Virus record (IMG/VR): IMGVR_UViG_3300028415_000003
Span: 6,814-70,813 of that record
Origin: a virus
Strand: one strand, 5' to 3'
DNA: 64,000 nucleotides
Of this stretch, positions 6,049-64,000 are shown piece by piece. Made by a program: the position numbers and the translations under genes. The notes beneath the pieces were generated by a model that saw nothing but the letters and a program-made list of their open reading frames with translations, ran no database searches and was not told where the DNA came from. Each line of letters begins with the position of its first letter. The stretch's first letter is position 1.

Positions 6049-7470
6049 ATGAAACTTTTAACAGGTAATATGCAGGGGTGGGCAAACGAATCTACCACCT
6101 CAAACCACTTATTGACATTAGGTATTTCTGAACCTGAAGTATTGAATCAGGCAGCCACACTTTTTCAGCAAGAATATACTCCTCTCTCTTCATTCCTTGC
6201 AAACAAAGGTTATACCGCTAAAGGGTTGACTCCAGGGTACGAGTCTAAAAACTACCGCGTAGTTGGTAACCGAAAAGTAATGTGGCCGGTAAAAGGATCG
6301 AGCAAGCGTAAAGGGCGTGTAACACGCTTTGAAGCTGATCACGAATCAACTCCCGGTATTCATGGCGAACTCGTTAAGATTTACACCGATACCGATTGGT
6401 TTTCTCCTTATGATACGCTTGAACTTGCAGACAACCGTACGATTGTAACGATTGTTGACGACAAGCTTCCTGACGAAGTAGAGCCTGGAGAATGGCTGTA
6501 TTACTGCAAAATGAACCGTGATTCAGAAGCGGAATACGTTGATCCTGAACTTCTTGTTGATGGTGCCGAAATTGGCTTCGCTTATACCAACTTTTATGAA
6601 GGTTCTGAGACAGCTTACGAGAAGTATACCGGTCATAATTGGGCTGCAAGTTACATGACTATTCAGCGTATGAAATGGTCTATAACTGGTACTGCTGCTG
6701 AAATGAAGACTGGTAAGTATTGGGTTGAGCACAATGGCGAAAAAGCCTGGGTAACTTATGCTGAAATGGAAATGCTTCAGCGTTGGGCTGCAGCTCGTGA
6801 ATTCCAAATCACTCGCGGTAAAGGAACAGTTTCTGAAAAAGATACTGTAATGCTTCGTGACCTTAAAGGTCGTGACATTGTTGCCGGTTCAGGTATAACT
6901 AATATTGGTGACGGATCACTTCGTTACCCAATGAATGAGTTGACAATGAACGTGGTTGACAACACCATGTCAAACATGCACATCTTCAGCTCTAACGAGG
7001 GTAAACTTGAAATGACTGTCCTTGCTGGTAAACGTTATCTCGACACTTTCAGTCGCCTGATGCGTAAAGAGGCCGGTGTCGATCCTCACGTTGTTGAGGG
7101 AACCGGATCTGAAAAAGGTATCAATGCCACTTATTCATTCTATGAATTTAACGGTATTCGTATCTATCCTATATACGCAAAGTATATGGATGACAGTTCT
7201 CGTCCTTCTCGTTACAACCAAACGAAAGGCTACCGTAAAGCTTCCAATTCAGCTATTTGGATGTCTACTGGTAATTCCAATATCGGAGCCCCTAACATTG
7301 AGTTAATTGCACTTGGAGATCGTTCATTCAAGAAAGGTACTGTAAGTGGTATCGATGAAGGTGGCGATCAAATGAAAACATCTGTGGATGGTAGTCACAC
7401 TCACGTGCTGTCTGAAACGGGTATCATCTGCCGTGACATGTTCGGTATTTCTGAACACTATGAACGATAG
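6049..7470 (+). CDS. Major capsid protein (crAss-like)
   Basis: 473 aa; position after scaffold; highly-expressed-type codon bias (CGT, GGT); C-terminal 'SVDGSHTHVLSETGI' resembles crAss-like MCP ends. Confidence 0.85.
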   Translation: MKLLTGNMQGWANESTTSNHLLTLGISEPEVLNQAATLFQQEYTPLSSFLANKGYTAKGLTPGYESKNYRVVGNRKVMWPVKGSSKRKGRVTRFEADHESTPGIHGELVKIYTDTDWFSPYDTLELADNRTIVTIVDDKLPDEVEPGEWLYYCKMNRDSEAEYVDPELLVDGAEIGFAYTNFYEGSETAYEKYTGHNWAASYMTIQRMKWSITGTAAEMKTGKYWVEHNGEKAWVTYAEMEMLQRWAAAREFQITRGKGTVSEKDTVMLRDLKGRDIVAGSGITNIGDGSLRYPMNELTMNVVDNTMSNMHIFSSNEGKLEMTVLAGKRYLDTFSRLMRKEAGVDPHVVEGTGSEKGINATYSFYEFNGIRIYPIYAKYMDDSSRPSRYNQTKGYRKASNSAIWMSTGNSNIGAPNIELIALGDRSFKKGTVSGIDEGGDQMKTSVDGSHTHVLSETGIICRDMFGISEHYER

Positions 7471-15100: not shown

Positions 15101-16034
15101 ATCGACAGGCAGTATCGTGGTGGGTTCTAACTATCAGTTTTTAAATCCAAAAAGCAGGAAATTTGCAGACTTCGGTGTGCAGCACCATAAAGCAATCGTT
15201 AATACTGGAGAAATGATTTTCGGAGTAGATGCTTATAAGAAAAAGCTCTGGACTATCTCGCTTGGCTATACTAATTCAGGTTATGCCATGCTTTCTGCAA
15301 AAGATATTGCGAAAGAACAGCTCGTATATAGTAAAGTTTTGTCACTGATCAATGATTACCTCGAGAATGAAACAAGGTACAGCGAGTATATTGATTCGCC
15401 ATCAAAAAATAAAGGGATTGTCTTAGGACATGATCCGGAATATAATGAAGTCTTGTTTAGTTTTCATAATAACGAAAAGGATTATTCTGGAAAAACATAT
15501 GTTTTTAGTTTGGACTTGGGAGCTTTTAATGACGAGTACACTATTGTTTCTCCACACTATTTTAATCTTAACAATAAACTTTTGAGTGTCAATCCAAATG
15601 ACAAGCACAATGTCTATTTGCATAACAAAAAAGATCAAGTACTTAGTTTTTACGACAAAAATCATATATCTTTGGTTGAAGTTATTGTGACAGGTGTTAA
15701 TAGTGAATCCAATCTTAATTCATTAGAAAAAGAGTTTTTTAACTGTCAAATACGCTCACCTGAAACAGAACTGGAATCCATTATATTTAGGACAGAAACT
15801 CAAAAAAGCGTTCTTTCGCCTTTCATAGAAAATCCTTCAGAAATGTTTTTCAGGAATCCTGAGTATTATGAGGGAAAATGGCAGTTGCCTATTCCTTTAC
15901 AATCCAGTTCAGAAAAATCTTATGAAGAACAATCAGAAATGAGAGGAGATTATTTATCGGTAACTTTAAAGTATAATAAGAACAAAAGCTTTTTCATCAA
16001 GCATGTAATAACAAATTATGAAATTTCTTACTAA
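12174..16034 (+). CDS. Tail stabilization/muzzle protein (P22 gp10-like)
   Basis: 1286 aa; N-terminal 'FIKGHKADLDPS...FRKAKN', 'GYMRGEIYPFAMVFIFKDGSES', C-terminal 'MRGDYLSVTLKY', all typical of crAss-like Tstab. Confidence 0.82.
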   Translation: MEQKNIFIKGHKADLDPSYMDNQSFRKAKNFRFIKRDGRGFVASPLNSNELEFEIKEGYVPLNGIEYKGIYYMVSYNPDTKNIEVGSFPSPGDDGFVTKYKAIQTLEKDKEDNDFDTNKLGITWDNTLDIIARENFDKTVNLYLCDYVNPNYVINTGFDQDGNYKEETIKDEELPERVYQFNAPQFYPKLENFNLVDGGTNKPGAYYIYIRYVDSSLTATVFINSFGPFMIGEKDAGLIDDMGNSRKGIKLKLEKLDVAYPYFQIGISRKSENDNVPVSDTYLVDVLYKTQEEKEITIYGSESNALLTNEELLLKNSSFVSCKSHTIHEGKYIGANWKSAKRDYDTFFEIAQSVDVEVKTEYQKSDHLYSDYIESEVESDDIAYDNIGYMRGEIYPFAMVFIFKDGSESQPVPIKGKKFNNNNTIDNINDKGLVMMPNFGDSDEVNNLNNLIFVKFDLTEARSVIQDSEEMKNVKSFYFVRGDRIKNRTYTGLAHAASFAVLGRSPDHDNYAGEILFLGKENSNNNNTIPTYYYNEDELSERLKILSNTSDFKEYKKKSLYVPYLSEKVKGFIKSNDNIIIDNVITHEELMSDKYYFFYSPDHLFSTENDIQNFYFKPLFEINLDEYRKQQDLPVDGEGNDSLDIQYGREIIDCKNDLKVINDGGYDVEIVNVNEGVGRDSYDFGTLLHHIHNRESEPLQGEPGWNMSTGFVIRTNANIKFRGFLGLKFNNPFNHKKGVIGSFVKYSTDVEYYATIKSSFSVKNTLYKKISDIFPIARLSGFLTIKKGDIFINKVFFRQARWIGNPTYWKDNNYAHGTLLGLVVESELNTFLRNEVPATDEEGTKIRYSFFPKILEEEKEFNDWMFFSRKDEDIYEAMQINRGYSHMLPDRALFGYDEALPENGIIRPTRLYFSGEQKINAFADAFSTINPGSYMDYPVEDGEVIYVDSINGNLFSANRLALVQYFSGQNKIESNPSTGSIVVGSNYQFLNPKSRKFADFGVQHHKAIVNTGEMIFGVDAYKKKLWTISLGYTNSGYAMLSAKDIAKEQLVYSKVLSLINDYLENETRYSEYIDSPSKNKGIVLGHDPEYNEVLFSFHNNEKDYSGKTYVFSLDLGAFNDEYTIVSPHYFNLNNKLLSVNPNDKHNVYLHNKKDQVLSFYDKNHISLVEVIVTGVNSESNLNSLEKEFFNCQIRSPETELESIIFRTETQKSVLSPFIENPSEMFFRNPEYYEGKWQLPIPLQSSSEKSYEEQSEMRGDYLSVTLKYNKNKSFFIKHVITNYEISY

Positions 16035-39160: not shown

Positions 39161-40299
39161 TGGCACATATTGATCCTACATTTATCATAGGCACAGAAGT
39201 CGAAAAAGAGAGCAAACATATTTTTGTAAGAGATCAAACTCTTAATTATGCAGAAACGCTTAATGAAGAAGATACAGGATATGCTTCAACAGAGTTTATC
39301 CGGGCAATATTTGTATTTGAAAACAACACGATAAAGCCGTCTCTTTCTCAACTAACAGGGTTTGGTATGGAGTATCAATATCCTGTACTCAATAACAGAA
39401 GGTATAAAACCTTCATGTATTTCATTCCAGTATATGATGATGCCCAGGAGTACCCTGTTGGAGTCATTGTATATAAAGACGGCGGTTTTTATAAGAAAAT
39501 AAACAATGATGCGATTTCTTATGAACCAGGTGAGGAGCCTGAAATAAGAGCGAGTGTCACCGACCAACCGTTATATGATGATGCCCAAATAGAGTTATGG
39601 CAGCGATTAACTATAGATGATTTCGCTGAATTTGATGCGTGCTATACAAATGCTCAAGCAGGAAGCCTTGTTTATCCTGTTCAGTCTATTCAACAAGCAG
39701 TGTCATTTAGTAATACTGATTGGCAAGATTACAGCTTAAAAAAGATTGCTCCATACAGGTGGCAAATTTCAGACGATAGCAACGTTCCAGGTGCAAGAGG
39801 AATAAGAGTGCTTGATGTTGAACAAAACGAGTTAGAGCCTGCGATTTCATTTTCTATTGAAAGTGGAGAAACCAAAGAGATAAACCTTGGAAATAATTCG
39901 GATGGAGTTTATTTAGTAAAGATATACAATGGGTCTATAGAAGAAATGAGAGACGCCGATCCGAATTCTGAAATCTTAATCGAAGAATCAACCAAGTGGC
40001 TTGTGATATATGAGTATTCAAAAGTAAATGATTATGTTCATCAAGCCATGAAAGAAGTGTATACTAAAAAGCATGAAAGCTATCAAGGTGTAATGGAGCA
40101 ATACAAAAGAAGCCGTAATGTTATGAGTTCTTTCAAAATCTACTCGTTTTTTCTGACCGCAATGAGTACCATAAATTTTGAAAGGTTTGAATACATAGAG
40201 CATTACATGCTTACTAACGACAGATATTCTGTTATTAAATTAGCAGATAAGTATATAAGAAAATCGCTTGAAATGGCGACTAACTACAAAGACGATTAA
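39160..40299 (+). CDS. Putative tail-associated structural protein
   Basis: Acidic, beta-rich; coupled to the vRNAP gene; within the structural operon. Confidence 0.4.
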   Translation: MAHIDPTFIIGTEVEKESKHIFVRDQTLNYAETLNEEDTGYASTEFIRAIFVFENNTIKPSLSQLTGFGMEYQYPVLNNRRYKTFMYFIPVYDDAQEYPVGVIVYKDGGFYKKINNDAISYEPGEEPEIRASVTDQPLYDDAQIELWQRLTIDDFAEFDACYTNAQAGSLVYPVQSIQQAVSFSNTDWQDYSLKKIAPYRWQISDDSNVPGARGIRVLDVEQNELEPAISFSIESGETKEINLGNNSDGVYLVKIYNGSIEEMRDADPNSEILIEESTKWLVIYEYSKVNDYVHQAMKEVYTKKHESYQGVMEQYKRSRNVMSSFKIYSFFLTAMSTINFERFEYIEHYMLTNDRYSVIKLADKYIRKSLEMATNYKDD

Positions 40300-44346: not shown

Positions 44347-44568
44347 TTCATTCTATTTAAGTTTTATTTGTTAATTAAAATAAACAAGTGGGCTTTCAGT
44401 AGCGATTTTCTTCCTTCGGATGTGCATCCTTTTCAGAGTCTTTCTACCTACTATATATCTGCACAGATACGCCCACCAGTATATAATTTAGTTAGCAGAA
44501 ATAGGGGTGATGCTCTTTGATTAAACATTCGTGATGAAAAAAATAAAAGAAAAACATCACCTGCATTT

Positions 44569-45150
44569 TTAGTAAATCAAATCAACATCTTTTTCATTTT
44601 CGGAAAAATACTTCTGCAAGTAATCCTTACCATACAAATTCAATGTTTGTGGACTTACTTTAAATTTCCATTTCTTACCGCTTGGTGTCGATTGTGGATA
44701 TTCTTCCCATTTACCACCTATGAAAGTTTTACCATCGCTATATTTACTTTCATTGCTGAATGTAATATGGTTTGGCTTCTTGTAGGTATCAGGCAAATGT
44801 CCTGTTTGTGGGTCAAATTTAAGCTTTCCAGCCTTGATGTCTTTCCAAGCACCTTGTAAGTCGTAAGAACCCATTTCATAAAGAACATTATCTTGTCATT
44901 TATATTTGTCGTTAGCCCATTTGTAGTATTCATCAAATTCAGGCTGTGTTAATCCTGTATTATAATTTGACACATACTTTAATGATGGGTCTTTAGCCCT
45001 TTCATTTCTGATTTTATCAGTCAAAGAAAGTTGTAGAAGTTTAGCAGGTTCTTTTCTCAATTGGGTAGTATATTGTTTACCGTTAAAAGCAAATTGTGCT
45101 AATCCTTGTTTTCTTGCATTCGCAAATGCAATTTCAAATTCTGTTGGCAT
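44569..45150 (-). pseudogene. Phage protein split by a single in-frame TGA (44896-44898)
   Basis: ORFs 44896-45150 and 44569-44874 are in the same frame: ...DKYK*QDNVLYEMGSYDL... Confidence 0.7.
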
Positions 45151-45253: not shown

Positions 45254-45384
45254 TGTTAACAGCACCTAACAAAAAGCGGGGGCGACCTGCCTCGTAGAAA
45301 CATTTGTGGTTTATTAAATTTCATATCTTCGTATTTAATTTTGTAGTTAATTCCCCGCCTTCTGTTAGCCGCAAACCGTTGTAA
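45254..45384 (+). repeat. attC-like recombination site
   Basis: TAAC-AGCAC-CTAACAAAAAGCGGGG (45266-45281) ... CCCCGCCTTCTGTTAG (45353-45368)-CCGCAAACC-GTT (45378); both stem mismatches are G:T pairs on the bottom strand. Confidence 0.72.
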
Positions 45385-45626: not shown

Positions 45627-46121
45627 TTAGCTGCAACTACTATCATACCGTTCTAGACTAGCTATTGTGTCGTGAATTGCCCCTCCGTGAGAAAACAATC
45701 CTATTTTTTCAACGTGAAAACCTCTATTTTTGCCCATCGTATTTGAATGATACCCGAATGTAATAACTATTCCCCCTTTATTTAATACATTATGTATTTC
45801 ATCTTTTAGTTGTTTGAATGGACTGCATCGGATACCTTTATACATCTCGATACTTTTCCGGTATGCATAAGGTGGGTCAAGCAATATAGTATCAAACTTT
45901 TCCCTTTTCCAAGTTCTTAACAATTTTAAAGCATCCATTCTATAATCAGCCAATGCTTCTGGGTCTAAATCATTTCTTACTTCATCAATGTTCAGCTTTG
46001 TTCTACCAGCAAAAAGGTTTAAAGTTCTTCCTTCGCAATTAAGCTCAACCCATTCCCTAATGTTTTTTACCGAAAAAGTATATCGGTGCAATGGGCATTT
46101 TATGTAATCAAATTTTATCAT
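45627..46121 (-). CDS. Small DNA adenine methyltransferase-like protein
   Basis: SAM-binding NLFAG and catalytic DPPY; the stop codon lies in an R-box-like GTTAGCTGC. Confidence 0.75.
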   Translation of the reverse strand: MIKFDYIKCPLHRYTFSVKNIREWVELNCEGRTLNLFAGRTKLNIDEVRNDLDPEALADYRMDALKLLRTWKREKFDTILLDPPYAYRKSIEMYKGIRCSPFKQLKDEIHNVLNKGGIVITFGYHSNTMGKNRGFHVEKIGLFSHGGAIHDTIASLERYDSSCS

Positions 46122-47572: not shown

Positions 47573-47814
47573 AAGATTATCAGATAAATTATAAGGTTCA
47601 ATAATGCAATTACGATGCTTAAAAGCACAAATTGTTTTAGCTTAATAACATGTCTTGCTTTTGATATACGATAAATTATTTTTTCATGTCCATTTATATA
47701 CCTTCCTCGACGATCTCTTTTTGGAACTATTTTAATAGTGAAATCATTATTAAATACAATAGCAAAAACAAAAAAAATAAATATTACAGTCGGTAAAAAA
47801 CTAATTATCTCCAT
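47566..47814 (-). CDS. Small two-TM membrane protein
   Basis: Two hydrophobic segments flanking a basic RDRRGRY loop. Confidence 0.55.
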   Translation of the reverse strand: MEIISFLPTVIFIFFVFAIVFNNDFTIKIVPKRDRRGRYINGHEKIIYRISKARHVIKLKQFVLLSIVIALLNLIIYLIILW

Positions 47815-47831
47815 GATTTTTTCTTATTTCG

Positions 47832-48010
47832 TTAAACAATCATTCGTGATGAAAAAATAAAAAACCCCACCCGCATTTTTAGTAAATCAAATCAACATCT
47901 TTTTCGTTTTCAGAGAAATACTTTTTCAGGTAGTCAGCACCGTATCTATCCAAAACTTGTTTGCTTGGTTTATAAAAAGACCTTTTTGTGTCAGCGTTTT
48001 GCCCCCATTC
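47832..48010 (-). pseudogene. Diverged duplicate of the 3' end and downstream flank of the 44569 gene
   Basis: Encodes ...YGADYLKKYFSENEKDVDLIY* (stop 47879-47881) versus YGKDYLQKYFSENEKDVDLIY*; the flank CATTCGTGATGAAAAAA...GCATTTTTAGTAAATC is also shared. Confidence 0.8.
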
Positions 48011-48383
48011 GCCTTCGCCAAGCCCGAAAACGTTGCCTACAATTAAAGAAAAACGGAATAAACAAAAATCTGTTTTTAGGTGTATCGCTAGTTTTTCTAC
48101 TTCCGTATTTCACTCTCATTTCTAATTCAATCAACTCTTTTGGTTTCGCTAACTCTCTATCAAGCTCACACCTTAATTCAATCATTTTTAATTCAAATTG
48201 TATCATATATGGTGGTTTTTCCCAATAAGGAAGGGATAGGTAGTGCATAGCAAAAGCATCTTCTTTTTCTTGTGCTTTATAGAAAGCATCGCACTGTTTG
48301 GGGTGTACTCTTTTTAATATTCGGTGGCTATTGCCGTTACTATCTACATACTCACCGTAAGATTTCTTATTTTCTCTTTTCAT
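47991..48383 (-). CDS. Hypothetical cassette-borne protein
   Basis: Lies between GTTGCCTACA (48032) and TGTGGGTAAC (48410-48419), complementary at 8/10; reads through the R box because CAA sits where TAA would be. Confidence 0.5.
   Translation of the reverse strand: MKRENKKSYGEYVDSNGNSHRILKRVHPKQCDAFYKAQEKEDAFAMHYLSLPYWEKPPYMIQFELKMIELRCELDRELAKPKELIELEMRVKYGSRKTSDTPKNRFLFIPFFFNCRQRFRAWRRRMGAKR
48009..48041 (+). repeat. 3' arm of an attC-like site
   Basis: CGCCTTCGCCAAGCCCGAAAACGTTGCCTACA parallels CGCCTTCTGTTAGCCGCAAACCGTTG at 45356-45381. Confidence 0.6.
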
Positions 48384-59171: not shown

Positions 59172-59230
59172 ATTAGGGAGCATAAAACCCATTCATCACT
59201 TTTGCGTGAAGCCGTGGGTGAGTAGTTCAC
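59172..59230 (+). mobile_element. 59-bp miniature IS200/IS605 derivative inserted in dnaB
   Basis: TTTAT (59167-59171), then GGAGCATAAAACCCATTCATCACTTTTGCGTG (matches the tnpB element left end) fused to GTGGGTGAGTAGTTCAC (right end). Confidence 0.85.
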
Positions 59231-60560
59231 TCCACTCATTAAATTTACAGTATTTTAGGTTTTCTAAATAACGAATTAGACCAAGTTCACTTTCCCTGTT
59301 TTTCGTCACGTCAAGAATAATCAAGTGTTCAAATACATTGTATTTTTCTTTGGACACTCGAAGTTTCTCTGCTATTTTTAAATCAGGAAATAATGAAGGG
59401 CGGTTCATAAGTATAACCTGATTTGCATAATCTGCAATTCGAGAAGATCCCCGTACATCTGAATCTCTTAGTCTGTAACCTTCAGTCATGCGTTTTTTGT
59501 TCTGTGATTCCTTTGTTACGTGGTGAATAACGATAATAATGCCTTTGGTATAGTCACGTAATTCAACCAATTTTTTGGCAATTAAATCATCATTCTCCAA
59601 TTGATGTTTCTTGTCAATTCCACTGACAAGACCAAGGTTATCAATAATCAAAACATTGGCTTTGGTTGGTCTCAAAATACAAAAGCGCTTAAAATCATTG
59701 CATATCTGATAGATATTTTTCGGTTTGGTAATGAACTCTACATCATCCTTATCGTATTGATTGTAAATCGCTTCCATGTCCTTAATATTACGATCAGTTA
59801 AACTGTGATTTCGTGATTGAATTTGGCGTTCTGTTAAATTTAAGTGACTGCTAACAACATTACGAAGAATAGCTTCACCGGATACTTCATAAGTGTGCCA
59901 GTTAATTGCTACATCTTTGTTGTGTTTTAATAAGTTAAAGGCATAATGAATAGAGAATTTTGTCTTTCCTGCCCCTTTTTGAGCAGCAATTAAAATGATG
60001 TTACCAGGACTAGTCGCTATGAAATGGTCAAAGTTTTTGTCTCCGGTTTCTAGGTAAGGCTTTTTTGCTCCAGATGCTTTCATTCGTACATCTTCAAGCA
60101 TAGACTTGAAAGATAATTTCAGTGTTTTTTGATCCTTGCTGTTTAAAGATAAATTGGAAATTTCTGTTTCGATTTTTTGTGTGATTTCGTCAGCAGGATA
60201 TTCTCCAAGCATTTTTTTAATTGTTTGGCTGAGCTCTAAGAGTTTCTTTTCGTTGTAGTTACCAATAATTACTGAGAGGTGATATTGCCATTTATCTTCA
60301 TCCTCATATTCGGTATTTATAAGGTTTTTGAAAATATCAATGTAATCTTCATTACCGCTTGATTCAAAAGCGTCAGTCATTGTTGATAAGCAGATTTCTT
60401 CATCTTGTTCTGAGATTAATTTGTAAATCGCCCAGAACATTGCATTTTTTTCATCCGTAAACATTGTTGCAGTAAGCTTTTTCTCTATAGAATAGTACAC
60501 TGCCAGATGATTAAAGCATTGTTTTAAGATGTTTTTTTCATAATTTTTCTCCTTTACCAT
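59196..60560 (-). CDS. dnaB: Replicative DnaB-like helicase (C-terminus altered by mini-IS)
   Basis: AAQKGAGKT, YEVS, IIDNLGL, DVRGSSRIADYANQVI, KNRE. Confidence 0.88.
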   Translation of the reverse strand: MVKEKNYEKNILKQCFNHLAVYYSIEKKLTATMFTDEKNAMFWAIYKLISEQDEEICLSTMTDAFESSGNEDYIDIFKNLINTEYEDEDKWQYHLSVIIGNYNEKKLLELSQTIKKMLGEYPADEITQKIETEISNLSLNSKDQKTLKLSFKSMLEDVRMKASGAKKPYLETGDKNFDHFIATSPGNIILIAAQKGAGKTKFSIHYAFNLLKHNKDVAINWHTYEVSGEAILRNVVSSHLNLTERQIQSRNHSLTDRNIKDMEAIYNQYDKDDVEFITKPKNIYQICNDFKRFCILRPTKANVLIIDNLGLVSGIDKKHQLENDDLIAKKLVELRDYTKGIIIVIHHVTKESQNKKRMTEGYRLRDSDVRGSSRIADYANQVILMNRPSLFPDLKIAEKLRVSKEKYNVFEHLIILDVTKNRESELGLIRYLENLKYCKFNEWSELLTHGFTQK

Positions 60561-61494: not shown

Positions 61495-61564
61495 TTTTCA
61501 TTAAATTTGATAAATAATTATTGTAAATAAATTGTTATATTAATTAATTTCTAAATAAATTTAT

Positions 61565-61798
61565 ATGGTTTTGCAGGAGAAAAAAGTTATAAGTTACACA
61601 ACATTAGTTAAAACGAGACTTAGCAATGAATACGGAATTGAGCTTGATAGGCGTGCAATTCATCAAACAATTAATTATGCTCTTAAAAATATTGTAAACG
61701 CCATGTACCATTTATGGTTAATCGAAATAAAGAATTATATGTTTATTCGGCCAAATCAACATCGAAGACAGCTAAAGTTGAATCAACTTAAAAGATAG
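61565..61798 (+). CDS. Small basic protein, possibly HU/IHF-like
   Basis: Helix-helix-strand pattern ('IEIKNYMFIRP'); divergent orientation. Confidence 0.35.
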   Translation: MVLQEKKVISYTTLVKTRLSNEYGIELDRRAIHQTINYALKNIVNAMYHLWLIEIKNYMFIRPNQHRRQLKLNQLKR

Positions 61799-62340
61799 TT
61801 GTGATTATTGTAAAGTATGGCTTTCACAATAATTCGGAAGTACAAGATTGTACTTATCCTCTATTAATAGTTAAGAATTAATCTAAACTGTTATATTTAT
61901 GAATTATTTTTCACATTCATAAAATGTAAGCGTTTCATTTACAATATTATCATGTTATTCTATATGTGTTCCGGGGTTGAAAGTGTCAAAAAAAGTTTAT
62001 AACTTCGTATCCTCAAATTACGCTCAGCATCTTTTTCTATTCTTATTCTATATTTTTTCTTTTCTTTTTAATCTTTTAAAAATTCCATTAATTTTCAAAC
62101 TCTCGGAGATAAACGCAGGGAAGGTGTAGTATAAAGCCAAAGCATCTGTATGCATTATATAGTAAATTCAATTGCTTTTTTTATAAATTGTCATATAGAA
62201 ATTATTCAAGCATTATAAAGGATTTGTGTCACAGGTTACATATACTTTGTTGGTTGTGCCAATCAAACTTTCCTGTCCTTCAGAATATACTTTCTCTACT
62301 AACATAACGTGCGCGTGCGCGTATATTAGAATTTTTGAAA

Positions 62341-62412
62341 GTGAACTATTCACTCACATCAGTTGACTTCTGAAGTCCATCCCATTTCTTCTGGCGTGGG
62401 TGGGTAGTTCAC
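62341..62412. repeat. Back-to-back pair of IS200/IS605 right ends
   Basis: GTGAACTATTCACTCAC ... GTGGGTGGGTAGTTCAC (inverted, 14/17). Confidence 0.7.
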
Positions 62413-62423
62413 TAGTAAATATT

Positions 62424-62536
62424 GTAGGGAAGTTAAGACTCGAACTTAACAGGCTAGTAAAACACAGTACTATGAATTACTTTAGGAGACCGCCAAACCA
62501 ATAAATTATTGGTATTAATATCTCTTATTTTCCCTA
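62424..62536 (-). ncRNA. tRNA-like structured element (non-canonical)
   Basis: TAGGGAA/TTCCCTA closing stem; T-arm GTTAAG-TTCGAGT-CTTAAC; internal hairpins; no canonical D or anticodon arm. Confidence 0.45.
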
Positions 62537-62564
62537 GGTCTTTATAAAATCTTCAATGAGTTCA

Positions 62565-62810
62565 CTATATCAGTTCTTCTATTAGATTTGTGGCCGCTTC
62601 ACCATATTTTTGATATATATAATCAAATAATGAAACTGTACCCATATCTAGATGATAACAATTATCCGGATTATAGAGATCGTCTTTCTCTTTTAATGAG
62701 TTTTCAAATTGTTCAATATCGAATGATTTTATACTCATTGAAAGAAAAACTGTAGAGTATGGCACCCGAAAGCCAAAAACGCTTTCAAATATTTTTTCAT
62801 TTTCCGTCAT
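62565..62810 (-). CDS. Hypothetical protein
   Basis: 81-aa ORF with an AT-rich leader. Confidence 0.5.
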   Translation of the reverse strand: MTENEKIFESVFGFRVPYSTVFLSMSIKSFDIEQFENSLKEKDDLYNPDNCYHLDMGTVSLFDYIYQKYGEAATNLIEELI

Positions 62811-62855
62811 ATATTAAATTTTTAGTTATTAAATCGCACTAACCATACACGGATG

Positions 62856-63092
62856 TTAGTTTTTATTTGCTAATATTTTATCTAATTCCTTAACAGACTC
62901 ATCTATAATCCAATTGCGTTCAGAGCAACCGCAATCGAACCCTTTATAACTATCACAGATACAACCGACATCTAATCCAATAATCATATTTTTCATGCTG
63001 ATTAGTGTTTCTTTGTCGGGTTCATTAGCATTTTCTAAGTGGTTTTCTGCCATTTTTATCACTTCTTTTAGTGCTATTTTTATAAAATCCAT
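62856..63092 (-). CDS. Small Cys-rich hypothetical protein (likely cassette-derived)
   Basis: CIC...CGC; the stop codon coincides with GTTA of an attC-arm-like CATACACGGATGTTAG. Confidence 0.5.
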   Translation of the reverse strand: MDFIKIALKEVIKMAENHLENANEPDKETLISMKNMIIGLDVGCICDSYKGFDCGCSERNWIIDESVKELDKILANKN

Positions 63093-63152
63093 ATTTCTAA
63101 TTTTTTAATTTCACGTAAAGGTGTCTTTATTCGCTTGTTACCTGCAATGCCT

Positions 63153-63938
63153 TTACCACAATCGTAATTGACGTTTGAACGTATTAAAACGCTCTTCTTG
63201 CAAGCTCCAGTATTCTTTATCTATTTCCCAGCCTCTAAACTCGCAATTTGCTAAATCAGCTTCTATGCGTATCGAGCCACCGCCTACGTGGGTATCAAGT
63301 AGCTTCATTCCTTCAAAGCCGTAATCCGCAATTAATTTTTTATACAACAGTTGTGGTTTATGGCAAGGATGCAATCTCTTTTCATTCAACTTCTTATTTC
63401 CTTGTTGCGTCATAGGTTTTTTTAGGCTTTTAGCTTGGCACATTCCAGCCCACAACAAAGGCAATTCAATTTCGTGGTCAATCAAGCTACAGTAAGCCAT
63501 TTCATATTTTTTGAAACTCATACCTTCTGCTACGCCTTTGTTCCACTTAATACGCCCTGTGCCTAATCCTTGCCAATCGACATATTCTATTCCAAAAATT
63601 ATTTGCTCCTTACTAACTCTCTGCAATTCATTAAAGTATTCCTGTGAAGGTAGCTCTTTGTCCCATTGCTTTTGCGTATATGGCTTTTTGTTTTTGTTGC
63701 CGTTTAGCCTTGTTCCATTTTTCTGCTTAACTGTTGTGTTCGTTTCTTTAAGATAAGCCATATTCGCAACATCAATTCCGTAAGGTATATCGCAAATTGC
63801 TAAATCGAAGTAGTTATTTGGGAAGCGTTTTAATCCTTGCATACAATCTTCATTGAACACAATAGAAGGCACAGCAGGTAACAACGTGTCATACTGCATA
63901 GCCTCTGTATTTTCGGTGTTTATATCTCGTTCAATCAT
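63153..63938 (-). CDS. DNA methyltransferase (N6-A/N4-C, beta class)
   Basis: NEDCM, DLAICDIPYG (motif IV variant), HPCHKP, LDTHVGGGS, GWEID. Confidence 0.88.
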   Translation of the reverse strand: MIERDINTENTEAMQYDTLLPAVPSIVFNEDCMQGLKRFPNNYFDLAICDIPYGIDVANMAYLKETNTTVKQKNGTRLNGNKNKKPYTQKQWDKELPSQEYFNELQRVSKEQIIFGIEYVDWQGLGTGRIKWNKGVAEGMSFKKYEMAYCSLIDHEIELPLLWAGMCQAKSLKKPMTQQGNKKLNEKRLHPCHKPQLLYKKLIADYGFEGMKLLDTHVGGGSIRIEADLANCEFRGWEIDKEYWSLQEERFNTFKRQLRLW

Positions 63939-64000
63939 TTGTGTATTTTTAAAAGTTTGTGGCTCGTTTCAACTGGCTACGCAGCATACACAAACCGTTA
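63874..64000 (+). repeat. attC-like recombination site
   Basis: GGTAAC-AAC-GTGT[C]ATACTGCATAGCC ... GGCTACGCAGCATACAC-AAACC-GTTA; one extra C in the left arm (extrahelical G on the bottom strand); mismatches are bottom-strand G:T. Confidence 0.78.

Follow-up and report, generated by a model that had tools for sequence, protein, structure and literature searches.

An attC-like hairpin beside an exchangeable DNA methyltransferase module at the end of a viral contig, with a probable start codon in the hairpin loop

The stretch of DNA analysed here (the window) comprises 64,000 nucleotides (nt) of the IMG/VR virus record IMGVR_UViG_3300028415_000003, positions 6,814 to 70,813. The viral record is 70.8 kb long and rated 81% complete; the window covers its right-hand 64 kb, and the end of the window is the end of the contig. 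At this end, on the minus strand, lies an open reading frame (ORF) for an N6/N4 DNA methyltransferase, together with an imperfect hairpin that resembles the attC sites of integron cassettes and holds the first codon of the ORF in its loop. Below, WIN denotes the window, WIN_E1 denotes this hairpin (63876–64000), and the compared loci and whole records are designated by L and G numbers.

Methyltransferase Gene and Hairpin at the Contig End

The methyltransferase ORF (63153–63938, minus strand) encodes 261 amino acids (aa) and begins MIERDINTENTEAMQYDTLLPAVPS. Its product matches PF01555 with 40.3 bits against a cut-off of 26.7 and contains the methyltransferase motif D-x-P-Y-G as DIPYG at residues 50–54. 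A total of 639 homologues were found at E ≤ 1e-40.

The hairpin WIN_E1 is 125 nt long (64000–63876, minus strand, which is the gene-sense strand) and reads TAAC...GTTACCT. All its parts given below are on the minus strand. The 5′ core is represented by TAAC (63997–64000); since the contig ends at 64000, the right-hand core is cut to 4 nt here, and the remaining bases of this 7-nt core, as well as the outer motif, are located past this end. The 5′ arm (63975–63996), delimited by traceback and aligned with 19 homologous hairpins, consists of an unpaired spacer GGTT(T) and the stem strand TGTGTATGCTGCGTAGCC. It is followed by a 71-nt A-rich loop (63904–63974) that contains the motif TTGAAAC and the ATG 63938–63936, which is the first codon of the 261-aa ORF. 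The 3′ arm GGCTATGCAGTATGACACGTT (63883–63903) has a second in-frame ATG at 63899–63897 and lies within the long ORF, where it corresponds approximately to residues A13–L20. This agrees with a preliminary description of this DNA, made from the sequence alone, in which the N-terminus of the methyltransferase was assigned to an arm of an attC site. The 3′ core GTTACCT occupies 63876–63882. The sense strand of the stem has two or three G:T wobbles and one bulged G in the 3′ arm, which is a single extra C on the plus strand.

Some repeated words can be noted by eye in the loops of the G001 hairpins and of the window (63904–63974). The word TTGAAAC is located directly after the 5′ arm, and two or three ACAAATG-like words are spaced about 20 nt apart (in G001, for example, in L019:7818–7950 and 15825–15956). 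The loop ATG may be part of such a repeated binding motif.

A second complete hairpin of the family lies at 45254–45384 (minus strand). Its loop ATG gives only a 22-aa ORF, which ends on the TAA of the 3′ core. This hairpin is located about 250 nt downstream of a 164-aa short methyltransferase-like ORF (LLDPPYAY, 45627–46121) that ends on a CTAAC core, and the leader in its loop resembles the leader of gp36 of the Polaribacter phage P12002L.

Related Hairpins in Other Records

The stretch 63860–64000 (141 nt) was folded as DNA on both strands and as RNA; the free-energy z-scores of −0.70, −0.97, and −0.68 are not significant. The hairpins were then sought with a script that takes AAC...GTT pairs and scores the anchored stem formed by their inner flanks, so that AAC and GTT are preconditions of every hit. 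On the sense strand of the window, two outliers were obtained, 45380–45258 with a score of 42 and 63999–63880 with a score of 37; in 25 block-shuffled windows, scanned on both strands, the stem score did not exceed 36. Judged by these scores, WIN_E1 alone is only marginally above chance, and its significance comes from its relatives. The hairpins were not among the top families in a generic repeat search of the whole window. A strict TAAC...GTTA scan of the plus strand found only WIN_E1, and relaxed cores and both strands were required for more. An Rfam scan of the window at the gathering threshold gave 0 matches, as did a search for the exact 25-nt right arm among viral contigs. Rfam itself contains no family for attC sites.

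Relatives were collected by a protein search, which yielded 14 viral loci, and by a profile search, which yielded 30. The same architecture with different stem sequences is located upstream of the methylase in six of the first 14 viral loci. When 99.7 kb of related loci were scanned, 31 strand-hits in 20 places reached a score of at least 33, versus two in shuffled sequences. Related records contain arrays of such hairpins: one record of 41.6 kb, rated 100% complete, has ten, another has about 15, and G001, G002, and G003 have 4–15 hairpins within a few kilobases. Further homologous hairpins are carried by the Polaribacter phage P12002L and by some Bacteroidota assemblies.

An alignment of 20 long hairpins indicated that the pairing is conserved while the sequence changes. 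In the 10-bp upper stem, 92.8% of the cells are paired, versus 58.7% in column shuffles (0 of 500 reached the observed value) and 42–57% in slid controls, and compensatory double changes were revealed in nine of its ten pairs. One G:T wobble of the coding strand, located 6–7 bp below the loop, is invariant in all 20 hairpins (columns 26 and 117 of alignment A5). A second wobble, 3 bp further down the stem, is G:T in eight of the 20.

Gene Module and Its Borders

The methylase belongs to a gene module (63138–63881, minus strand) whose ends are inverse complements, TTGTTACCTGC (plus strand, 63135–63145) and GCAGGTAACAA (plus strand, 63874–63884), complementary over 11 bp. The same layout is present in L043, L044, and L045. 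At the downstream end, the core AGGTAAC (sense reading; 63137–63143, minus strand) is not followed by a complete hairpin; it is a point at which junctions differ in the population. When the 7-nt cores flanking a gene are compared in the whole family, their four variable positions show perfect inverse complementarity in 14 of 32 adjacent pairs. The background is 3.1% of 1858 pairs taken from different records, and only one of 48 within a hairpin. Such complementarity would be expected if the gene module circularises and its own two ends complete a site, as in integron cassettes. By eye, and with no statistics attached, extended motifs can be recognised at the module ends, GTT-NNNN-GNAGTR at the starts and TAG-YATTGC-NNNN-AAC at the ends.

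The stop codons of upstream ORFs are placed less regularly. Among the 49 hairpins, an upstream ORF of at least 50 codons stops on the TAA of the core in only four cases; the mode is 13 nt before AAC (12 of 49), and 20 of 49 stops fall within 8–16 nt. The methylase itself stops 16 nt before AAC, with a second in-frame TAA on the core. It was previously proposed that the attC doubles as a stop module, since two neighbouring ORFs end on the GTTA/TAAC core. Both coordinates are correct: the stop 62858–62856 lies inside GTTAG (62855–62859), and the stop 45629–45627 lies inside CTAAC (45630–45626). As a general role, the stop module is not supported by the counts above.

Comparison of nearly identical methylases in different records indicated sharp borders of homology. 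The L002 copy has 86.9% identity to the window over 763 nt, and the similarity is limited to 63893–63137, that is, from core to core, with the homology beginning in the 3′ core at G|TT (63882/63881). The interiors of both flanking elements are unrelated in these two loci. The L043 and L044 copies are 91.8% identical over 744 nt, again bounded by two cores and with different hairpins on both sides. Together with L045, they represent one methylase at 90–92% identity, combined with three different downstream and two different upstream hairpins. The records are otherwise unrelated at the nucleotide level, except for one further gene.

The same borders appear in metagenomes. Contigs from four lake-water runs were compared with 61500–64000. 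In three of the four runs, the methylase piece is a separate unitig that also stops at 64000, and in all four runs contigs diverge to the right of 63139/63140 into at least four different continuations. The contig of the record ends on GTTA because assemblies branch there. Among the sequencing runs listed as containing this sequence, none was an RNA run. The attC-like palindrome reported in the preliminary description proves to be a genuine cassette-junction site, as judged by covariation, the arrays, and the inverse-complementary cores across genes.

The next unit downstream of the methylase contains a 78-aa Cys-rich ORF (62856–63092, minus strand). In the four lake-water runs, the segment 62877–63140 has a summed depth several-fold higher than its flanks, and it is split into many short contig variants whose neighbours differ on either side, as if it were a cassette present in multiple contexts.

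Start of Translation

Homologues of the methyltransferase differ in the length of their N-termini. Among the best 120 of the 639 homologues, 46 start 24–29 residues before DxPYG (M-x-S-I-V-F-N-E-D-C), and 55 have at least 36 residues of variable sequence before this motif. Methionine occupies the short-form start position in only seven of these 55 extended proteins. In the window, an in-frame GTG (Val23; 63870–63872, minus strand) is located where short-form homologues have ATG; it is also a part of the conserved GNAGTR site motif.

In the loci compared, the N-terminal extension was found in hairpin-linked copies only, and copies without a hairpin start at the core. The check suggested in the preliminary description, according to which the extension should occur only in attC-linked copies, therefore turned out in its favour. 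The extensions of different lineages cross the 3′ core in all three frames: LLPAV is read from TTG TTA CC., DVS from GAT GTT AGC, and CYA from TGT TAT GC.. Since all three frames are used, the conserved entity is the DNA and not the peptide.

An in-frame ATG in the loop, open into the methylase, is present in nine of nine methylase-linked long hairpins. In ten of the 25 other long hairpins, too, the loop has an ATG in an open frame that leads into an ORF of at least 60 aa, and the bacterial loci L066 and L067 (by scanning) and L064 (by eye) show the same arrangement. For comparison, the hairpin table gives about 7 open frames with an ATG in 65 frame slots without a long ORF behind them. By this comparison of frames, the nine of nine open loop ATGs are not due to chance. 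In the class-II copies (L008, L043, and L044), none of the codons ATG, GTG, and TTG occurs from the core to the conserved SxVFN, and all class-II relatives keep the in-frame loop ATG. The methylase module has no leader of its own, and the loop is A-rich and unpaired. Because the module lacks a leader, translation most likely begins in the loop, and we consider that the methylase probably starts at the ATG 63938. The first codon of the ORF indeed lies in the loop, as claimed before, and the extension is linked to the hairpin; the use of this codon as the start is likely.

In L045, the segment 1430–1570 retains the loop ATG region and the 3′ arm of L043 and has lost the 5′ arm, so that the ORF extension survives there without a hairpin.

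Strand Orientation

The gene sense was assigned from the flanking ORFs for 49 hairpins. The sense strand folds or scores better in 42 of them, the strands are equal in two, and the sense strand is worse in five. In total, 129 G:T and T:G wobbles were counted on the sense strand versus 16 on the antisense strand; the G:T bias noted previously for this site is real and general. In published attCs, G:T pairs are commoner on the bottom strand, 1.24 versus 0.39 (PMC5027507). The wobble bias could also reflect selection on mRNA. The extra C, on which the earlier assignment of the strands also relied, is present in WIN_E1 as a single bulge, but bulged bases are not conserved in the family, with 14 on 5′ arms and 12 on 3′ arms. 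The spacer of the sense strand is asymmetric, with a mode of 5 nt after AAC versus 1–3 nt before GTT. Extra bases on the sense-strand AAC arm would mark the top strand by the rule given for classical sites (PMC5027507).

Comparisons of gene–hairpin linkage disagree on which strand is top and which is bottom. A second methylase gene (gene X) of L004 and L007 is co-inherited with the whole downstream hairpin, up to GTTA, whereas in L043 and L045 the gene is common to both together with the 3′ arm and the loop ATG region. The simplest reading would place crossover points at both cores, as is conceivable for sites that lack extrahelical bases.

Other Features of the Record

The helicase encoded at 59196–60560 was compared with a phage collection, and the only matches were below 27% identity and belonged to unrelated phages; thus, the label “crAss-like” is not confirmed for this virus. 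The contig end at positions 1–726 of G000, to the left of the window (locus L032), contains tandem repeats with a period of about 51 nt and staggered self-matches of 81–90% identity. A depth peak at 62340–62423 in the lake metagenome contigs coincides with short repeats. A paralogous remnant at 47700–48060, aligned to 44380–44720, was uninformative.

Discussion

We propose that the last 125 nt of the window represent one member of a family of attC-like junction hairpins separating exchangeable modules in Bacteroidota phage arrays. A typical member consists of AAC, an unpaired spacer of about 5 nt, a 17–22-bp stem with G:T wobbles, a loop, and GTT. The arrays are comparable to the cluster of attC sites lacking integrase (CALIN) of the Polaribacter phage P12002L. 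A CALIN comprises at least two neighbouring attC sites, with a spacing limit in IntegronFinder of reportedly about 4 kb; besides its two complete hairpins, the window contains hairpin-less cores at 63137–63143 and 62855–62859. Coding in the methylase module (63881–63138) begins directly after G|TT, and the module ends with a core inverse-complementary to its own first bases. Translation from the loop ATG 63938 would read the 3′ arm and the core before entering the module, so that the protein gains about 22 variable and probably dispensable residues. Exchange may be performed by an integron-type tyrosine recombinase, encoded by the host or acting in trans, with both cores as putative crossover points. 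The structure of the hairpins, their conservation and covariation, the complementarity of the cores, the sharp homology boundaries, and the junction polymorphism in metagenomes are direct observations. As an overall explanation, we lean to an attC-like junction combined with an exchangeable methylase module whose translation probably starts in the loop.

Several attributes of attC sites are present. AAC and GTT triplets stand at the hairpin base, with TAAC in 32 of 48 cases, GTTA in 36 of 49, and AACG in 43 of 49. There are also a stem, a spacer, and a variable terminal structure, with lengths of 59–144 nt (mode 120–127). For published attC sites, a length of 57–141 nt and an unpaired spacer of 5–6 nt per arm are given (PMC5027507), and the spacer of the phage hairpins is more asymmetric. 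The cassette start is complementary to the inverse core of the terminal attC in the adjacent pairs counted above. An attC is recombined by an integron integrase in the form of a folded single strand, the crossover lying between A and C of AAC; for the phage hairpins, the homology breaks and metagenome branch points at the cores, and the published IntI1 activity on one P12002L site (PMC9892861), bear on this indirectly.

A number of observations weigh against this explanation. The 7-nt consensus is mostly absent: RYYYAAC was found in 3 of 48 cases and GTTRRRY in 5 of 49, and WIN_E1 itself has GTTACCT. No conserved extrahelical bases were found in the 49 hairpins, and two or three, opposite AAC in the recombinogenic strand, are expected for an attC. 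The window contains only two complete hairpins, 18.5 kb apart. Unlike in classical cassettes, neither flanking hairpin interior travels with the methylase module. No protein-level constraint on the extension can be seen; in L043 and L045, five codons differ and one of these differences is synonymous (by eye). In addition, the GTG conserved at the short-form start position (63872–63870) could be the true start. As for the recombinase, a search for tyrosine recombinases of PF00589 gave 0 matches in the 70.8-kb record (the control was positive in 14 of 14 genomes) and none in eight of ten related viral records, and the integron integrase TIGR02249 was above the cut-off in none of the five bacterial genomes with the module. 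A complete integron, with intI and attI, is not present, as there is no integrase in the record. The other two of the ten viral records do contain PF00589; the better match is a 271-aa Xer-like protein, which is far below the integron-integrase cut-off (67 bits versus 265).

Small Xer-like genes (271–278 aa) on the array strand were found in three contexts, L016:1453–2268 (G003), L066:10950–11771, and L073:8843–9679, at a distance of approximately 0.3–2.2 kb to the methylase or its hairpin (L066 and L073) or 1.6 kb to an array (G003). They were considered as candidates for a dedicated array recombinase, and no association is claimed. All are below the integron-integrase cut-off; their mutual identity is only 28–34%, and other Xer-like genes of the same bacterial genomes are equally close to them. 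The proximity of small recombinases of this type to the arrays in these contexts is a weak lead.

The available data can be explained in other ways. A chance palindrome at the contig end is very improbable. The z-scores between −0.7 and −1.0 and the stem score of 37, which barely exceeds the shuffle maximum of 36, are what such a palindrome would give, but it is refuted by the covarying homologous copies, the arrays, and the core complementarity, and the contig end is an assembly branch point in independent runs. A more serious alternative concerns the start of translation: the hairpin may be a junction only, with the methylase starting within the module at GTG 63872–63870 (or at ATG 63899) and the upstream frame untranslated. 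The GTG 63872 is situated exactly where 46 of the best 120 homologues have their start region, 24–29 aa before DxPYG; it is present in eight copies (WIN, L002, L003, L004, L055, L064, L066, and L067), and the extension is variable and unconstrained. However, this GTG belongs to GNAGTR, which is conserved in other cassettes regardless of frame, and it lies 9 nt behind a stable stem without an A-rich leader. The class-II relatives have no such codon and all have an in-frame loop ATG, and open loop ATGs in nine of nine hairpins would be unexpected if they were not used, given about 7 of 65 in other frame slots. An internal start is possible but, in our view, doubtful.

Two further explanations concern the hairpin itself. 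In the preliminary description, the plus strand was taken as the attC's top strand, and the methylase as an inverted cassette carrying its own attC at the 5′ end, so that the leader, start codon, and N-terminus would belong to the gene's own cassette. The better folding of the sense strand and its excess of wobbles fit this model, as published attCs are G:T-richer on the bottom strand (PMC5027507), and so do the loop ATG region, 3′ arm, and gene shared by L043 and L045, the position of the polymorphic junction 63137–63140 at the sense-strand AA|C, and the WIN_E1 bulge on the arm opposite the sense-strand AAC. Nevertheless, the WIN and L002 genes and the L043 and L044 genes are 87–92% identical with unrelated upstream hairpin interiors and a break at G|TT, and gene X of L004 and L007 is co-inherited with the whole downstream hairpin. 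The bulge is not conserved, the published rule assigns the role of top strand to the sense strand, whose AAC arm has the longer unpaired spacer, and the G:T bias could equally come from mRNA selection. The inverted cassette is thus not established, and we consider it unlikely. Somewhat less likely still, the hairpins could act mainly at the RNA level, as intercistronic stem-loops with G:U pairs in early mRNA whose loop presents the start codon or controls processing or stability; the mosaic boundaries at the hairpins would then be ordinary phage mosaicism at gene borders. The wobbles occur almost only on the transcribed sense strand, including the G:U invariant in 20 of 20, the downstream ORF starts in the loop in 19 of 34 long hairpins, and the RNA centroid fold shows the long-range stem. 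Such an action leaves the inverse-complementary core bases across genes (14 of 32 versus 3.1%) and the conserved AAC/GTT triplets unexplained, there is no Rfam match in the window, and a hairpin from the same phage group is recombined by IntI1 (PMC9892861). Action as RNA and function as a recombination site are mutually compatible.

Returning to the attC-like junction, a bolder version can be put forward tentatively. It is conceivable that the hairpins belong to a distinct integron-like exchange system of Bacteroidota phages. Its sites would be near-symmetric attC-like hairpins without extrahelical bases and with an invariant coding-strand G:T wobble. Crossovers at two cores would reassort gene and hairpin modules independently, and the long hairpins would be portable translation-start modules lending an ATG and a leader to leaderless modules. 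The recombinase of such a system might not be a classical IntI.

Methyltransferases of phages shield the phage DNA from restriction by the host, and the swapping of their genes between unrelated phages therefore bears on phage–host arms races. If the loop ATG is used, a recombination site and a translation start form one physical unit, and a leaderless gene could be expressed wherever it lands. In classical integrons, ORF-11 of attI1 and short ORFs within attC help to translate cassettes without an initiation region (PMC8876359); the role of ORF-11 and attI1 would then be extended to attC-type sites. If confirmed, two-core exchange together with the coding-strand folding bias would mean that integron-type sites can work without the strand-selectivity features of class 1 integrons. 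In practical terms, assemblies of such phages break at these junctions.

Comparison with Known Systems

Repeated stem-loops between small early genes of virulent phages are known from the mobile regulatory promoter-stem-loop (PeSL) cassettes of T4-type phages, for which modular shuffling was proposed. These cassettes combine a promoter with terminator-like stem-loops and are exchanged by homologous recombination. We know of no AAC/GTT cores or inverse-complementary ends of individual genes in PeSLs. A limited search of full-text literature found no description of cassette ORFs that regularly start inside the loop of a phage attC.

The closest known case is that of phage CALINs. Qi et al. (2023) described 17 CALINs in phages, including the virulent Polaribacter phage P12002L, which has two methyltransferase cassettes; CALINs with N6_N4 methylase cassettes were reported in phages, and the P12002L_attC2 site was recombined by IntI1 (PMC9892861). 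Phage attC clusters with methylase cassettes are thus already published, and the case of the window is a variant thereof. Like the arrays described here, P12002L, a marine Flavobacteriia phage, has no integrase, and attC-type hairpins flank its methyltransferase cassettes (PMC9892861). Scanning of its genome (NC_028924) revealed hairpins of this family in the gene-sense orientation. GTTACCT...AGGTAAC spans the methylase gp54, and one long hairpin at 39244–39119 has arms that are close to those of WIN_E1 and G003_19613. Its methylases are only 17–28% identical to the methylase of the window, and the ATG codons of gp54 and gp36 are located about 60 nt behind a short hairpin, outside it. The CALIN account of P12002L, in its available part, does not include start codons in loops, a G:T bias of the sense strand, or exchange at two cores (PMC9892861).

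Classical attC sites, as in class 1 cassettes and the Vibrio VCRs, resemble the phage hairpins in having AAC/GTT at the base of an imperfectly paired hairpin, spacer bases that are unpaired, and a terminal loop that varies, and classical cassettes share the length range, a start complementary to the inverse core, and a G:T-richer strand (PMC5027507). In contrast to classical integrons, the phage hairpins occur without an integrase or attI, RYYYAAC and GTTRRRY are rare in them, and there are no conserved extrahelical bases. Their spacer is 5 versus 1–3 nt, and the better-folding strand is the coding strand. The hairpin interiors are lineage-specific and not linked to the gene, and crossovers would take place at both cores.

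With regard to translation, the nearest parallel is ORF-11 of attI1, in which a start codon also lies in a recombination site and is read across the crossover into a leaderless cassette (PMC8876359). There, the coupling is provided by a short peptide or an occasional fusion (PMC8876359), whereas every hairpin-linked phage copy examined has the ATG of the site joined in frame to the complete enzyme.

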